Shown here piece after piece: positions 13,457 through 26,482 of a DNA stretch of 32,000 bases (position 1 is its first letter; each line of letters starts with the position of its first letter). The stretch lies in contig OZ245049.1 in assembly GCA_965224465.1 (NCBI GenBank), positions 1,560,001-1,592,000 on the forward strand. The letters run 5' to 3'. Source of the stretch: Flavobacteriaceae bacterium (GTDB lineage: Bacteria; Bacteroidota; Bacteroidia; Flavobacteriales; Flavobacteriaceae). The translations under genes and the position numbers were made by a program. The notes under the pieces were generated by a model. It worked only from the letters and a program-made list of their open reading frames with translations, made no database searches and was not told the origin of the DNA.

Positions 13457-14092
13457 TTAAAATTTATTATCTATATCAACATTCTTGAAAAAATCTGCGA
13501 TTACAAAAGGAATGTTATTTTTTCCAAAAAAAGAATTATACTTGACAAATGCTTTTACTCGTATTAAATAAAACATTCCATTCTCTTCGTAATAAGAGTC
13601 CATATCTTGAGATCGTTGCTCAAATTTATAATTAAAAGGAATAAAGGTTTTATTTATAATTGAACCTATTTTGGCTTCTGATTTAACAACCGTAAAAACA
13701 CAATCTCCTTTTTCTCGTTTGAACAAATCTATAATCTGTTCTAAAATATAATTATTCCTTATAGGGTTCGTAGGTTGTAATACGAGTAAAGCATCTGGAA
13801 ATGTAAAATGATTATTACTTAAATACATAAGAAAATGTTTAATAAATAAGGAACTTGAAGCTTTAGAAGAACAGTATTCCTCTGGTCTTATAATATATGG
13901 AACATCATTTTTCTTGCAAAATTCAACAATCACATTATCGTTAGTAGTGACAAAATATTCAGAAATATATTTAGATTTTTTAGCAAAATTAACAGAATGC
14001 ATAAATAAAGGTTTTCCTAAAAATAAAGCAAAATTTTTCCCAGGAAACCTGATAGAATTTTTACGCGCTGGAATGAGTGCTATTATTTTCAT
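13457..14092 (-). CDS. Acylneuraminate/CMP-sugar cytidylyltransferase family protein (NeuA/KdsB-like)
   Basis: 211 aa. The N-terminal IALIPARKNSIRFPGKN is the signature nucleotide-binding loop of the CTP_transf_3 family. Its start codon overlaps the upstream gene stop (ATGA, 14089-14092). Confidence 0.7.
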   Translation of the reverse strand: MKIIALIPARKNSIRFPGKNFALFLGKPLFMHSVNFAKKSKYISEYFVTTNDNVIVEFCKKNDVPYIIRPEEYCSSKASSSLFIKHFLMYLSNNHFTFPDALLVLQPTNPIRNNYILEQIIDLFKREKGDCVFTVVKSEAKIGSIINKTFIPFNYKFEQRSQDMDSYYEENGMFYLIRVKAFVKYNSFFGKNNIPFVIADFFKNVDIDNKF

Positions 14093-15516
14093 TGAACATT
14101 CGCTATTTTTAAGATTTCTGACACTGCATTATTGATAGCAAATTCAGCTGTAGTCATAAAATAATTAGACTTTTCAACGATTATATTCCCCTGTATTCTA
14201 GCCACTAAACTATTAGAATTTAGTAATTCTTTAATTTTACTCTTTGCTTCGTTTAAAGACCTAACCTCAAATCCTAATTCTAATTCCTGTAGATTAGGGT
14301 GATAATTAGACATGGATGTAGGGTTAAAAACAAATGGAATGGCATCATACACAATACTTTCCATTAAAGTGGATGAAAAAACAGCTACACTAACAATACT
14401 TCTAGACAAAACATTATCTAATGACACCGATTTTGATGGTACAAAAAACACATTTTTATACTTGTTTAATGTTTGTATTTTATCTGAAAAAAATTGATTT
14501 GCAGGATGCTCTCTAATTAATATTTCTAAATTCGGAAATGTAATAGCGCAGTAAGCTGCAAATGCAATCATTTGGTTTATTACAGGAATGGATAAAATGA
14601 AATAAGGCGCTTGAAAAAAGAAAGAAATGGCATTTTTATCTTGAATATTGTAATCGCTAATTTTAAATGGGTAGCCAGTACTTATGAATTTTGGTTTGTT
14701 ATTCACTTTTTTGAAAAGACAGGAAAATTCATTTCCCCATGTTAAAAAATAATCAAAAGGCATGTTCCTAAATCCTGTATGTAATATGCAAGGCCATCCA
14801 TGTTGCAAGCAAATTGTTTTTATTTTTAATTTAGTTGCTATAGATGCTAAGATGTCATAATCTACAATATTGCCGCCTTCTATGACAAGTATGCATGCTG
14901 GATTTAAAACCTTAATAATTAATTCAAAAGTGTTGTATAAATAGTAAAGGTTAGGGAATTTACTTTTTAAAAATTCGTTTGGATATAGTTCTATCTCTAG
15001 CGCAGCAAATTCTATAATTTCTATATTTTTAGGATATGCTGTTGTGTTGTTAATACTTGCACTAGTTAGTACTACTATTTCTTGGTTTATAGCGGATAGT
15101 ATTCCTAAAACTTGTTTTAAAAAACGCTCGTTATAGGCGTAAAAGAGGATTTTATTTTTATAGGGATGTAATACTTTTTCTAAAGATGCTATTATATTTG
15201 AGTTATCGTTTTTTGTATCACTTGAAACAAAATATTCCTTGTTTTCTAACTGTAAATTTTTAAAAGTCTCTCGGTAAAACTCTTCTTTAAAGAATGGATT
15301 TAAACGACCGTTTAAATAATTAGCATTAAACGAAGCTCTTAGTGCATCGTTGTGTAAAGGGATGTTAAAAATTCGTTTCCCTAGTAAAGACCTTATATTT
15401 TCATTGTTTAACATTAAGTAATTGTGGTCTTTATCCTCAATTACATTCAAGTATTCTTCAATTATTTGTTCTATATATTTTAAATATTGAACTCCGTAAT
15501 CTTTTTGGTCCATCAT
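14089..15516 (-). CDS. Hypothetical protein, possible GT-B-type CMP-sugar-dependent transferase (weak assignment)
   Basis: 475 aa. Only weak motif-level hints: a LQHGW block, an EHP (HP) motif followed by VFSST. These are reminiscent of bacterial sialyl-/Kdo-transferase and capsule-synthesis families. Context with the overlapping cytidylyltransferase gene supports this. No confident family recognition by eye. Confidence 0.3.
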   Translation of the reverse strand: MMDQKDYGVQYLKYIEQIIEEYLNVIEDKDHNYLMLNNENIRSLLGKRIFNIPLHNDALRASFNANYLNGRLNPFFKEEFYRETFKNLQLENKEYFVSSDTKNDNSNIIASLEKVLHPYKNKILFYAYNERFLKQVLGILSAINQEIVVLTSASINNTTAYPKNIEIIEFAALEIELYPNEFLKSKFPNLYYLYNTFELIIKVLNPACILVIEGGNIVDYDILASIATKLKIKTICLQHGWPCILHTGFRNMPFDYFLTWGNEFSCLFKKVNNKPKFISTGYPFKISDYNIQDKNAISFFFQAPYFILSIPVINQMIAFAAYCAITFPNLEILIREHPANQFFSDKIQTLNKYKNVFFVPSKSVSLDNVLSRSIVSVAVFSSTLMESIVYDAIPFVFNPTSMSNYHPNLQELELGFEVRSLNEAKSKIKELLNSNSLVARIQGNIIVEKSNYFMTTAEFAINNAVSEILKIANVQ

Positions 15517-15530
15517 GATTATAGTTTGAA

Positions 15531-24760: not shown

Positions 24761-24842
24761 TGTTAAAAATTTTATTAATTATATTTGCCTCGAACATTTA
24801 AAGACACTCAAGGTGTGTGTCTATTCTTCGCGAGAGAATATT
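24761..24842 (-). promoter_or_regulatory. Conserved 82-nt element upstream of a precursor gene (copy C, diverged)
   Basis: Same length and register as copies A and B. The distal 55 nt are nearly identical (two substitutions). The palindrome is retained as TATTCT-TCGCGA-G-AGAATA. This copy is not attached to any ABC fragment. Confidence 0.5.
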
Positions 24843-24865
24843 GTTCTACAATCCCTTTGCTTTAA

Positions 24866-26482
24866 TTAGTCTAAGGGATTGTTTTTAGTATAAGTTTCTA
24901 TCAAATCATCTATAAAATAAAGAACATCACCTCTTTTGTATTCTTTTGGGTAATACATCCCGTTTAATAGCAAGGCAGGCGTAAAGTTAAGTTTATTTAT
25001 AGTACACCATTCCTTTTGTTTTTCTAGGCTTGTTTGATAGCTGTTTTCTGAGTGTTTATTCCATTTTTTAAGCCAAGAATCCGCATCCAAAACACCATAA
25101 ATATCGTGTAGGGCTTCTAAGCACACAGACTCTCCTTTACTATGGTACAAATAAAGTAGTTGAGAGGCAATAAGTAGAGAGCTAGCTTCTGCTGTGTTGG
25201 TTTGAATATTAAAACGTATGGTTATTTGTACATCCTCATATTCTTGTTGCATAATTTTTTCAAGAATACTGTGCATTTCTTTACAATGCCCGCACATTGG
25301 ATTGGTGATGAGTAATATATTTAATGAAACATCCGTCCTTTTATGTCCAAAAACTATTTCTTGAATGTTAGGTATAGCAGTATCAAGGACAGGTGTGGTT
25401 TGGAGCATTGCATTAAATAATTTAAAATTACGTTTAAATTTCATATACTCTAGTTTAGTCATTTTTAATTCATAAAAATGTTTCAAAAGAGGCTGTAGAA
25501 AGAACCAGATTAAGGTAGAAACACCAAAACCTATACATAAGAAACCAATGAAATAAGTATCTATAGTGAACAGATTATTCACAAAGAGAACAGCATATAT
25601 CACAGTAAATAATTGGAACCAAAGTACTCCAACTATCGATAAACAGAGGGGACACCACACTTTTACAATTATCCATTGATAATATACTGAATAAAAACTA
25701 AACGGAATAACACATACACTTAATATAGCCATGGCGTTAAATTGTAAATTCGAATTACTGCTACTTATAATAAATAATAACCAAGAAACAATGAGACTAA
25801 AAAAATAGATAACACCTACATCGCTTAAATTTATATTCTTATAAATAGTAGCCCCTTTCGAGTTTAGAACAGCATCACAACTTAATTTTTTACTAGCCCC
25901 AGCACAAAACTTATCGCCAATAACTGAATTTAAGCCAAGTTCATGCTGAACTATAATCACACTAACTCCGAACCCTATAACTGAGAAAAGAAAATGTAAT
26001 TGCTGAAAAAGACTTGCTGATTCCTTTAAAAAGTAAGCAGAAACACCAACTACAATTATTCCTAAAAGAATCGTATTTAAATGTTTAATTTTTGTTGTTT
26101 CAAATACCGTTATTTCAGCGTTATTTTCTACAATAATAATAACACCAGACCACAAATTTAAAAATGATTTTTTTGATATTTCTTCCTTTTTTTTATCCTG
26201 TGTTGTGAGTATAATCATATCGTCTAGCTGTTCAACAATTACAAGAATTTCTTTTTTATTTTTATTTAATACAGCTAGAAACACACTTGGTAATTCTTTT
26301 AAACTATCATAGGTTATAGGTACGTCAAGTGCAGCATTATTAATGTTAAAATATGAAAACAAATCTGTAACACAATTCAAACTGGGATAATGTGGATGTG
26401 TTAGTAATTGAATTTCTATTTCCTTGGAATCTATCAAAATATTATTCTTCGAAAGAAACGATGCTATCAAAAAGTGAATCAT
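24866..26482 (-). CDS. VKOR-family membrane oxidoreductase fused to a C-terminal DsbA/thioredoxin-like domain and an N-terminal degenerate C39-like domain
   Basis: 538 aa. Residues ~1-125 align by eye with the C39 domain of the ABC exporter (LPSVFLAVLNKNKKEILVIV versus LPCILHWNKNHYVVLYKI) but lack the catalytic Cys and His. There are six hydrophobic helices. The VKOR hallmarks are present: loop Cys pair CAGASKKLSC and membrane CXXC WCPLC. The C-terminal domain has NPMCGHCKEMH and a FTPALLLNG cis-Pro block. Confidence 0.75.
   Translation of the reverse strand: MIHFLIASFLSKNNILIDSKEIEIQLLTHPHYPSLNCVTDLFSYFNINNAALDVPITYDSLKELPSVFLAVLNKNKKEILVIVEQLDDMIILTTQDKKKEEISKKSFLNLWSGVIIIVENNAEITVFETTKIKHLNTILLGIIVVGVSAYFLKESASLFQQLHFLFSVIGFGVSVIIVQHELGLNSVIGDKFCAGASKKLSCDAVLNSKGATIYKNINLSDVGVIYFFSLIVSWLLFIISSSNSNLQFNAMAILSVCVIPFSFYSVYYQWIIVKVWCPLCLSIVGVLWFQLFTVIYAVLFVNNLFTIDTYFIGFLCIGFGVSTLIWFFLQPLLKHFYELKMTKLEYMKFKRNFKLFNAMLQTTPVLDTAIPNIQEIVFGHKRTDVSLNILLITNPMCGHCKEMHSILEKIMQQEYEDVQITIRFNIQTNTAEASSLLIASQLLYLYHSKGESVCLEALHDIYGVLDADSWLKKWNKHSENSYQTSLEKQKEWCTINKLNFTPALLLNGMYYPKEYKRGDVLYFIDDLIETYTKNNPLD

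Follow-up and report, generated by a model that had tools for sequence, protein, structure and literature searches.

The subject of this study is a 13-kb locus (positions 13457–26482) within a 32,000-nt stretch of DNA from a member of the Flavobacteriaceae (assembly GCA_965224465.1, contig OZ245049.1, positions 1,560,001 to 1,592,000). The whole stretch is referred to here as the window, and its own numbering is used throughout. The locus comprises twelve reading frames, all on the minus strand, and is probably a dedicated production and export system for several disulfide-cross-linked peptides that carry double-glycine (GG) leaders. A prediction made earlier from the sequence alone (hereafter, the original prediction) had described twelve co-directional frames spaced by −14 to +122 nt, with the gene for a VKOR fusion protein first and that for a cytidylyltransferase last. 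Upon re-measurement, all of the frames were found in that order, and the same intergenic gaps were obtained (−4, 14, −14, 50, 82, 12, 66, 82, 82, 122, and 105 nt).

Organization of the locus

The 5′-most gene (24866–26482) encodes a tri-domain membrane oxidase of 538 amino acids (aa), which is described by the Pfam families VKOR, Peptidase_C39, and Thioredoxin, by an AlphaFold2 (AF2) model, and by Foldseek comparisons. It is followed by precursor 3 (24533–24760), by a TlpA-type lipoprotein of 369 aa (23301–24410), and by a peptidase-containing ABC exporter (PCAT; 728 aa, 21032–23218) whose gene begins with TTG. Precursor 2 (20701–20949) and a TlpA-type lipoprotein of 534 aa (19030–20634) come next; then a duplicated 3′ end of the ABC gene (18766–19081), precursor 1 (18456–18683), and a 528-aa TlpA-like lipoprotein (16819–18405). 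The remaining genes encode a HlyD/AprE-type periplasmic adaptor (433 aa, 15531–16832), a transferase with a predicted GT-B fold (475 aa, 14089–15516), and a cytidylyltransferase (13457–14092) that overlaps the transferase gene by 4 nt.

Profile searches of all 12 products against Pfam and NCBIfam returned no member of the LanB/C/M, radical-SAM, or YcaO families, and no TolC or regulator family was found in the window; no search was aimed at a small membrane immunity protein. The original prediction had likewise seen no RiPP maturase, regulator, or TolC-like duct, and the searches agree with it.

A family of related loci

Is this arrangement peculiar to the window? Judging from sequence comparisons, the locus belongs to a family with >1,000 clusters, distributed over Flavobacteriia, Bacteroidia, and Cytophagia. 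A word-indexed search returned 202 matches to the oxidase, all of them ~530–550 aa long, and most combine VKOR with PF13462 (a DsbA-like thioredoxin fold with a helical insertion), often together with Peptidase_C39. An exhaustive HMMER search with the oxidase identified 1,361 representative clusters (50% identity) at E ≤ 1e-30; nearly all of the 150 best matches cover the query near its full length. The RefSeq name for these proteins is “vitamin K epoxide reductase family protein.” Finally, a scan of one genome per species yielded 313 relatives of the oxidase, 80 of which were examined with 10-kb flanks (loci L001–L080). The carriers of these 80 loci include Tenacibaculum, Lutibacter, Lacinutrix, Aquimarina, Bizionia, Labilibaculum, and metagenome-assembled genomes of Bacteroidales.

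A hidden Markov model (HMM) of the leader, seeded with the three leaders of the window and then iterated, was run over the 80 loci. It detected 494 GG-leader peptides in 73 of them, with up to 24 in a single locus. Every one of these peptides is encoded on the strand of the oxidase gene; 490 lie downstream of it, compared to 4 in upstream flanks of equal size, and the median distance from the oxidase gene to the first peptide is 153 nt. A survey of related genomes had been proposed as a check on the linkage between the peptides and the VKOR gene, and this linkage proved to be far beyond chance. Among the seven loci without a peptide found by the leader HMM, four or five end at or soon after the oxidase gene (contig ends), and one has a peptide just below the threshold; only L016 truly runs from oxidase directly to exporter. 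A VKOR fusion followed by Cys-rich GG-leader peptides is thus present in 73–74 of the 80 loci. Relatives of the window’s exporter occur in 60 of the 80 and relatives of its adaptor in 54, the adaptor being conserved beside the PCAT. The recurring order is oxidase, peptides, PCAT, peptides, HlyD adaptor, peptides; the window has the same order, as does a Cytophagia member, the pAT1 plasmid of Aureibacter.

A distant relative of the oxidase is encoded on a Parabacteroides distasonis plasmid (NZ_OY725766.1, 6908–14721; L087). There, the oxidase gene is followed by genes for a 6-Cys peptide, a DUF4369 protein, a LanC-like protein, two glycosyltransferases, and a C39-ABC exporter. This locus may represent a hybrid pathway for a disulfide-containing, lanthionine-containing, or glycosylated peptide.

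Precursor peptides and the parity of their cysteines

The leader MKKLKLNLEGAKVLSK(E/V)QQRSINGG occurs in three copies in the window. Precursors 1 and 3 are intact 75-aa open reading frames (ORFs), each with a 25-aa GG leader and a 50-aa core; the core of precursor 1 has four Cys residues, and that of precursor 3, an orthologue of which is present in a related metagenomic locus (L081), has six. The core of precursor 2, as read from its ORF, has 59 aa and six Cys residues. The original prediction of three Cys-rich GG-leader precursors with cores of these sizes and Cys contents held in all but one respect, namely that precursor 2 has no start codon. It displays ATA (20947–20949) at the position where the other two read ATG, and a 6-nt deletion has removed “NL” from its leader. 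Since its orthologue in L081 (6786–7040) has both an ATG and the full leader, precursor 2 of the window is probably silent, i.e. not translated or translated only poorly.

The family-wide peptides comprise 477 distinct cores with a median length of 39 aa and a Cys content of 13%. Four Cys residues were counted in 190 of these cores, six in 229, eight in 32, two in 6, and an odd number in 18. Hence, the count is even in 457 of the 475 cores that contain Cys (96%; binomial p ~4e-111), which is the expected outcome if every cysteine is paired in a disulfide. The same rule holds for the three cores of the window and for the additional peptides of the related loci L081, L082, L085, and L086.

The leader consensus, MKKSILNLGKALNKAEQKQINGG, is conserved among the peptides of the family. 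The cores are highly diverse; BLAST sorted them into 102 clusters, 60 of them singletons, numbers that give only a rough indication of diversity, as one giant cluster was driven by Cys-rich composition. A profile search of the cores against bacteriocin families yielded nothing above threshold. A precursor matched TIGR04149 with 16.8 bits (cutoff 25), and the leaders of the window and of related loci scored just below the threshold of NCBIfam NF047798 (a “bacteriocin-like” leader from Chryseobacterium) and below that of Pfam Bacteroid_pep. In RefSeq, the peptides are labeled “hypothetical protein,” apart from one neighboring GG peptide that PGAP calls a “bacteriocin.”

A tri-domain oxidase with a predicted inverted topology

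The match of the oxidase to Pfam VKOR (PF07884) scored 54.7 bits against a cutoff of 27.5, and the protein also has a thioredoxin-type CXXC motif. The AF2 model (pLDDT 82.7) contains six transmembrane (TM) helices. From the N-terminus, the parts are a C39-like domain (residues ~1–125), a helix termed TM0 (130–153) that precedes the five helices known from VKOR-thioredoxin fusions, the VKOR core, TM5, and a DsbA-like domain. In Foldseek searches, the N-terminal domain matched PCAT1, HlyB, and the peptidase domain of ComA; the C-terminal domain matched ScsC, DsbA, and BdbD (E 3e-6 to 1e-4), and homologues of the oxidase carry PF13462. The label “VKOR-thioredoxin fusion” in the original prediction was accordingly right about the VKOR and CXXC-bearing domains, and it needs to be extended by the N-terminal C39-like domain, the extra helix, and the DsbA-like nature of the partner. 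The six redox cysteines (Cys193 and Cys202 in the loop and C277xxC280 at the start of TM4, both in the VKOR part, and C397GHC400 in the DsbA-like domain) were invariant in alignments of 26, 118, and 128 homologues.

Across the family, the position equivalent to the catalytic cysteine of the C39-like domain is occupied by S, D, Y, T, N, or H, and never by Cys; the equivalents of the catalytic His and Asp are not conserved. We therefore regard this domain as non-catalytic. The C39-like domain of HlyB likewise has no catalytic Cys and binds the substrate. By its sequence and fold, the domain of the oxidase most likely binds the GG leader.

On which side of the membrane, then, are the redox centers located? 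With six helices, the C39-like domain, both VKOR Cys pairs, and the DsbA-like domain must all reside on one side. The C39-like domain has no signal peptide. We counted Lys and Arg residues in the connecting segments of 128 homologues sharing at most 50% pairwise identity. On the side of the redox centers, the mean numbers were 2.7 before TM0, 4.4 in loop 1-2, 1.7 in the eight-residue CXXC loop, and 6.2 after TM5; on the other side, they were 0.34 in loop 0-1, 0.01 in loop 2-3, and 0.41 in loop 4-5. The totals of 15.0 and 0.75 differ ~20-fold, and the bias had the same direction in all 128 sequences. Two controls behaved as expected of conventional topologies: the VKOR of Synechococcus exhibited the opposite pattern (three Lys/Arg in loop 2-3 and two in loop 4-5), and the window’s own ABC exporter obeyed the positive-inside rule. 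This rule, which is statistical though well established, would place the redox side in the cytoplasm. The extra helix, the missing signal peptide, and the charge bias consequently predict that the redox sites of the oxidase face the cytoplasm, opposite to the periplasmic action envisaged in the original prediction.

A conserved structured element upstream of the peptide genes

A 58-nt repeat is found upstream of each precursor in the window and recurs across genera. A fuzzy search turned up 224 copies, distributed over 70 of 81 sequences and always on the strand of the peptides. Of 215 scorable copies, 197 (92%) begin at a distance of 66–80 nt from the ATG of the GG peptide that they precede; between the element and the start codon of a GG-peptide block, there are ~15–35 nt. 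Among peptides encoded after a large gene, 130 of 148 have the element in front of them, compared to 66 of 343 encoded after another peptide; thus, it marks the start of each peptide block.

The complete motif is 63 nt long and consists of a hairpin (P0) and a P1/P2 pseudoknot, the 5′ arm of P2 being located inside the loop of P1; it features a conserved TCGCGA loop and a UUUAAAUGUU linker. This structure was derived by eye and tested on a MAFFT alignment of 63 diverse copies. In this alignment, 94.6% of the cells are paired, versus 36–52% when the partners are slid, and 11 of the 17 pairs change on both sides; none of 500 shuffles reached the observed values. Compensatory changes and G-U pairs occur in all three helices. 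RNAalifold independently predicted P1.

A covariance model (CM) of the motif found exactly three strong copies in the window, all on the minus strand: copy 1, ~17 nt upstream of precursor 3 (24777–24839; 87 bits); copy 2, which starts right after the stop codon of the ABC gene (20966–21028; 81 bits); and copy 3 (18700–18762; 81 bits). Copies were also found in L081, L082, and L085. The model found no motif in a lanthipeptide locus (L083), a radical-SAM locus (L084), or the Parabacteroides locus, and the Cytophagia locus had only a 12.8-bit hit, right before its first peptide. None of the 4,227 models of Rfam matched anywhere in the window at gathering thresholds, nor was there a match at the motif positions when E ≤ 10 was allowed over 18400–25000.

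These features suggest a cis-acting RNA, such as a processing/stability, translation, or ligand-sensing element, and make the motif a well-supported candidate for a new family of such RNAs. A role at the level of DNA may also exist. In particular, we considered a promoter of the extracytoplasmic-function (ECF) type (GAAT-N16-GTCT), which is less likely than an RNA given that three helices covary and that the motif begins at the upstream stop codon.

A hairpin is also located just 3′ of each precursor in the window. Two of these are significantly stable, and two have U-rich tails. The hairpin following precursor 3 (24490–24523) leads into a U-run, and the fold of the whole 127-nt region was not significant (z −0.8). 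An 11-bp hairpin follows precursor 2 (20655–20681; z −4.7), and a 9-bp, G+C-rich hairpin with a U-rich tail follows precursor 1 (18421–18442; z −3.7). The downstream hairpins may be attenuators that raise the ratio of precursor to machinery transcripts.

Lipoproteins and a probable mobile peptide-lipoprotein cassette

All three of the large accessory proteins begin with lipoboxes. The 369-aa protein (lipobox LISC) was assigned to DUF4369 and Thioredoxin_8 by profile searches, and the 534-aa protein (lipobox IISC) matched Thioredoxin_8/Redoxin behind a long, unassigned N-terminal domain. Both thus combine a lipobox with a thioredoxin profile and a WCAPC motif, as TlpA/ResA-type proteins do. The 528-aa protein (lipobox CISC) had no Pfam hit; it retains the fold and the lipobox and has lost the CXXC motif. 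It matches the 534-aa protein weakly at its C-terminus, and relatives in L002, L004, and L070 align with it over residues 1–520 and keep CLPC, CPPC, or CNPC. These matches substantiate the original description of a thioredoxin-fold lipoprotein without CXXC.

The same prediction had counted four thiol-disulfide proteins as the maturation machinery of the locus, and in this it fared less well. Relatives of the TlpA-type lipoproteins were found in only 11 of the 80 loci, which form a Lutibacter-like clade, and are missing from the other ~69. Where they occur, their placement is strict: all 13 full-length lipoprotein genes in six loci (the window, L001, L002, L004, L081, and L085) directly follow one to three peptide genes, and L082, which has an uncalled gap, is consistent with this rule. 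The N-terminal domains of the lipoproteins are as divergent as the cores, and the three proteins of the window share the thioredoxin domain (33% identity) or less.

A direct repeat of 479 nt (18604–19081 and 20876–21348; 98% identity) comprises ~316 nt from the 3′ end of the ABC gene, the intergenic element with the RNA motif, and the leader. The “ABC 3′ fragment” of the original prediction does exist; it reaches 19081, is part of this duplication, and takes in the last codons of the 534-aa lipoprotein gene, which run into the ABC-derived copy. The two arms of the repeat bracket core 2 and its lipoprotein. This arrangement suggests recombination at conserved flanks, provided by the exporter end and the leader, as the way in which peptide-lipoprotein cassettes are exchanged. 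Because the lipoproteins are found in few loci, are paired with single cores, and apparently move as a cassette, we do not consider them to be conserved oxidizing machinery. Of the roles that we considered, cognate binding or reduction of the peptide (immunity) fits best and proofreading second best; even the former is offered as a possibility that is open to considerable doubt.

Exporter, adaptor, and the transferase pair

The PCAT was identified by Peptidase_C39 (112.7 bits), ABC_membrane, and ABC_tran, and its catalytic motifs (QTESKDCGPTC, NHYVVL, and SDP) are intact. It is 72–81% identical to the exporters of related loci (76–81% to those of the Lutibacter-like clade). The adaptor had no Pfam match and was recognized by TIGR01843 only (E 4e-19), with a score below the curated cutoff; AprE-type adaptor domains were found in its homologues, and it is 51–59% identical to the adaptors of related flavobacterial loci. 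The original calls of a C39-ABC exporter and a HlyD adaptor therefore stand.

The AF2 model of the transferase (pLDDT 87, pTM 0.88) has a GT-B fold with two Rossmann-like domains. Foldseek matched it to GT4 enzymes, PglA, BshA, a polysialyltransferase bound to CDP, WaaA (a Kdo transferase), and TagF (E 8e-12 to 1e-8). The sequence itself matched no Pfam family and no PDB entry, and the earlier “GT-like” label is thus upheld by predicted structure only. The family is rare, with 14 relatives besides the protein itself, among which the motifs REHP and xEG are invariant. These recall the HP and D/E-D/E-G motifs of bacterial CMP-sugar transferases, a resemblance that fits the adjacent cytidylyltransferase. 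The latter was assigned to CTP_transf_3 by Pfam, and its best match, which was below the cutoff, is PseF-like; at 211 aa, it is shorter than its homologues (225–257 aa).

The transferase pair was not found in L001–L080. In all five of the homologue contexts that could be read, it is placed right after the C39-ABC exporter and HlyD adaptor. Three of these are VKOR-type loci (L081, 10001–12102; L082, 8001–10126; L085, 10001–12117), and two serve other classes of peptide: a class I lanthipeptide (L083, 9301–11392) and a radical-SAM peptide (L084, 9244–11392). We thus rejected the notion that the pair is an unrelated neighbor. As judged by these contexts, it travels with the exporter module and not with the oxidase. 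Its acceptor could be the peptide, a lipid, or the envelope.

Genomic context

At 30.5%, the G+C content of the locus is 3.5 points lower than that of its flanks (34%), in keeping with the higher AT content that had been perceived by eye. The locus had also been described as adjoining two insertion sequences (IS). Both elements exist, represented by IS30-like (9287–10243) and IS3-like (10467–11543) transposase genes, and they are 2–4 kb away, beyond an ldh gene. Housekeeping genes in the flanks of the window include those for PorV, FabH, ldh, GAPDH, and PFK; the PorV gene, which belongs to type IX secretion, is in the left flank (4343–5473) and confirms that the host is a member of the Bacteroidota. 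Tyrosine integrases, a relaxase/MobC pair, and a HigB toxin adjoin related loci (L082, 11146–12411; L085, 14569–21443). Together with the low G+C content and the nearby IS30-like and IS3-like elements, such neighbors are consistent with horizontal spread of the loci.

An inverted repeat of 55 nt (76% complementary) connects two intergenic regions 21 kb apart (5630–5684 and 26797–26851). One of its arms falls within the 635 nt that precede the oxidase gene, and the repeat may be a dispersed intergenic one. PADLOC found no defense-system family among the proteins of the locus, its sole hit being a chance match of 13 bits. A scan for sigma-70 promoters was uninformative (73 sites versus 75 expected); Bacteroidota use a different type of promoter.

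Discussion

Taken together, the linkage of the peptides to the VKOR gene, the parity of their cysteines, and the co-occurrence of exporter and adaptor strongly support the original proposal of a self-contained system for secreted, disulfide-rich peptides. The functional steps that we envisage were deduced from sequence across the family and are as follows. The RNA motif before and the hairpin after each precursor block would probably raise expression of the precursors above that of the machinery. The C39-like domain of the oxidase would bind the leader, and the disulfides would be set on the leader-bearing precursor in the cytoplasm. Based on the invariant cysteines and on what is known of the family, electrons would pass from the peptide to the DsbA-like CXXC, thence to the loop Cys pair and the CXXC of VKOR, and finally to menaquinone. 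The PCAT would then cut after GG and export the peptide with the help of the HlyD adaptor and an outer-membrane partner encoded elsewhere. In the clade that has them, the TlpA-type lipoproteins following each core would act as cognate protection or proofreading factors rather than as oxidases. The transferase pair would belong to the exporter module.

Not all parts of this proposal are equally secure. We lean, by a small measure, toward oxidation of the leader-bearing precursor in the cytoplasm before export. A cytoplasm-facing oxidase accounts for the fused leader-binding domain, as the leader exists only in the cytoplasm, and it allows disulfide formation to coexist with export that depends on an adaptor and probably occurs in one step. 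The chain as a whole, in which an inverted VKOR-DsbA oxidase with a C39-like leader module performs oxidation before export, the lipoproteins confer immunity by binding or reducing peptide that re-enters, and a pseudoknotted RNA controls expression, is put forward tentatively and stays somewhat short of probable.

Several considerations weigh against it. To our knowledge, every characterized VKOR/DsbA pair acts outside of the cytoplasm, and the reducing cytoplasm would oppose oxidation before export. The positive-inside rule behind the orientation call is statistical only. With their WCxxC motifs, the TlpA proteins could instead act as isomerases or foldases along a periplasmic route of two steps. 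The hydrophobicity of TM0 is only moderate, with ~15 strongly hydrophobic residues, and the Lys/Arg bias is weaker in the distant Parabacteroides homologue (11 versus 4). The window’s copy displays signs of decay in its ATA start, ABC fragment, CXXC-less lipoprotein, and short cytidylyltransferase. Finally, bacteroidetocin producers have no immunity gene (PMC6671954).

The most serious competitor is a periplasmic, two-step pathway: the PCAT delivers reduced cores, a canonical VKOR-DsbA enzyme oxidizes them, the TlpA-type lipoproteins serve as peptide-specific isomerases or foldases, and the folded peptide crosses the outer membrane last. It would agree with the location of all characterized VKOR and DsbA proteins and with the known periplasmic oxidoreductase activity of TlpA/ResA-type WCxxC domains. 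Six cysteines can be paired in 15 ways, so that an isomerase would help, and the window’s clade has one lipoprotein per peptide. It would also require that the six helices place a 125-aa domain without a signal peptide in the periplasm and that, in 128 of 128 sequences, ~1 Lys/Arg be cytoplasmic and ~15 be outside. Since the PCAT removes the leader on the cytoplasmic side, a C39-like domain in the periplasm would never encounter it. The lipoproteins are absent from most loci, even from those with >20 peptides, and one has lost its CXXC; the HlyD adaptor, for its part, suggests export in one step. On balance, we view the periplasmic pathway as unlikely and prefer oxidation at the cytoplasmic face.

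The purpose of the peptides is a separate matter. By analogy to known systems, they most likely serve antagonism between bacteria. They could instead serve as signals, as factors in adhesion or biofilms, as peptides directed at metals or predators, or as toxins aimed at a host. Many carriers, e.g. Tenacibaculum, are associated with marine animals; most loci have no conserved immunity, regulator, or receptor gene in cis; and up to 24 hypervariable cores per locus, none matching a bacteriocin family above threshold, resemble the repertoires of diversified effectors. On the other hand, the closest characterized systems, namely bacteroidetocins (PMC6671954) and class II microcins (PMC12219008), are antibacterial, and both the PGAP annotation of a neighboring peptide and the near-threshold NF047798 scores of the leaders point the same way. 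A non-bacteriocin role is thus more doubtful still than the periplasmic pathway. Least probable of all, in our estimation, is that the window’s copy is a decaying, largely inactive remnant of horizontal acquisition. The lesions noted above, which include a precursor 2 without a start codon, would fit such a history, as would the low G+C content, the nearby IS elements, and the integrases and relaxases beside related loci. Nonetheless, the oxidase, the PCAT, the HlyD adaptor, two precursors, the three lipoproteins, and the transferase all retain intact ORFs of full length, catalytic residues are conserved, and all three copies of the RNA motif retain scores of 81–87 bits. We continue to favor a working peptide system with a function in antagonism.

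How does the system compare to characterized ones? In its logic, it resembles class II bacteriocins, most closely the bacteroidetocins. In Gram-positive bacteria, locus-encoded thioredoxin-fold or DsbB-like proteins (a PedC-type protein for pediocin, BdbA and BdbB for sublancin) secure the correct disulfides. Those systems share with the present one the GG leader, the C39-ABC exporter, and the locus-encoded thiol proteins; they differ in having a single membrane, no HlyD protein, extracellular oxidoreductases, no VKOR/C39-like fusion, and no lipoprotein for each peptide. The original prediction had named no characterized analogue in Bacteroidota; the bacteroidetocins (proposed class IIf; Coyne et al. 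2019, PMC6671954), whose description also cites the pediocin operon, are such an analogue. Their locus encodes a 5-TM protein, a four-Cys GG-leader peptide, a thiol oxidoreductase, and a C39-ABC exporter; all four genes are needed for activity, and the four suffice in E. coli (PMC6671954). Common to both systems are the GG leader, a mostly even number of Cys residues, the C39-ABC exporter, a dedicated oxidoreductase, a multi-pass membrane protein, and the lack of a RiPP maturase. In contrast to the bacteroidetocins, whose leaders have 15–16 aa and whose mature peptides have 42–48 aa, the present peptides have leaders of 23–25 aa and, in the window, cores of 50–59 aa. There is one bacteroidetocin per locus, compared to three peptides here and up to 24 in relatives. 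Separate genes for the oxidoreductase and the 5-TM protein flank the bacteroidetocin gene, whereas here a single fused 6-TM C39-like/VKOR/DsbA protein is encoded upstream. No HlyD protein was reported for the four-gene bacteroidetocin region, nor does its description include TlpA lipoproteins, a transferase pair, or an RNA motif. Tenacibaculum gallaicum DSM 18841 carries a VKOR-fusion locus (L045), and this strain is also listed with a bacteroidetocin-type locus (C7448_RS13020–13030; PMC6671954), in which the TM protein and the oxidoreductase have separate genes (C7448_RS13025 and RS13020). Because both are present in one T. gallaicum genome, we regard the two as distinct systems.

Class II microcins (MccV with CvaAB/TolC; PMC12219008) share a Gram-negative host, a GG leader, a PCAT with HlyD, and, in some cases, disulfides; they differ in relying on housekeeping DsbA/B, in their small inner-membrane immunity proteins, and in their taxa and leaders. 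With the VKOR-thioredoxin fusion of Synechococcus (PDB 3KP9, 4NV2/5/6), the oxidase has in common the VKOR core, the loop Cys pair, the CXXC, the fifth helix, and a fused partner. To this plan, it adds TM0 and the C39-like domain, a DsbA-like partner with a helical insertion, and a reversed distribution of charges in the loops. The C39-like domain shares a papain-like fold with those of HlyB, PCAT1, and ComA; here, its fusion partner is an oxidoreductase instead of an ABC exporter, and it has also lost the equivalents of His and Asp. Inversion of DsbB/VKOR enzymes is said to have been achieved by Hatahet and Ruddock in 2013 through alterations of the helix number and of the charges beside the helices. 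An engineered, inverted VKOR makes disulfides in the cytoplasm of E. coli (PMC4727284, which cites Hatahet and Ruddock 2013). Those inverted DsbB/VKOR proteins are quinone-linked and cytoplasmic, as is predicted here, but they are artificial, whereas the present enzyme would be natural, family-wide, and equipped with a leader-binding domain. In the open-access literature, we found no paper describing a C39-like/VKOR/DsbA fusion or these peptide arrays, and a paper on VKOR phylogeny makes no mention of C39 fusions. The system owes its interest to a family that is large and has been neglected, to an oxidase predicted to be inverted and guided by the leader, and to the new RNA motif; the logic of the genes was already known from the bacteroidetocins.

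If the oxidase is oriented as predicted, it would be a natural example of an enzyme that uses quinones to drive disulfide formation on the cytoplasmic side of the membrane and couples this to recognition of a leader. Such an arrangement would be relevant to the way in which secretion systems deal with cross-linked cargo, and it could provide a chassis for producing knottin- or conotoxin-like peptides in bacteria. As part of a modifying enzyme, the C39-like domain would offer a means of recognizing leaders that differs from the RRE domains found in RiPP enzymes, and the peptide-lipoprotein cassettes suggest a testable principle of immunity or proofreading. For the Bacteroidota themselves, the family represents a reservoir of peptides that are annotated as “hypothetical,” with at least 1,361 oxidase clusters and up to about two dozen hypervariable cores per locus, in carriers that span marine and gut members of the phylum, including the fish-pathogenic Tenacibaculum and a plasmid of Parabacteroides distasonis.

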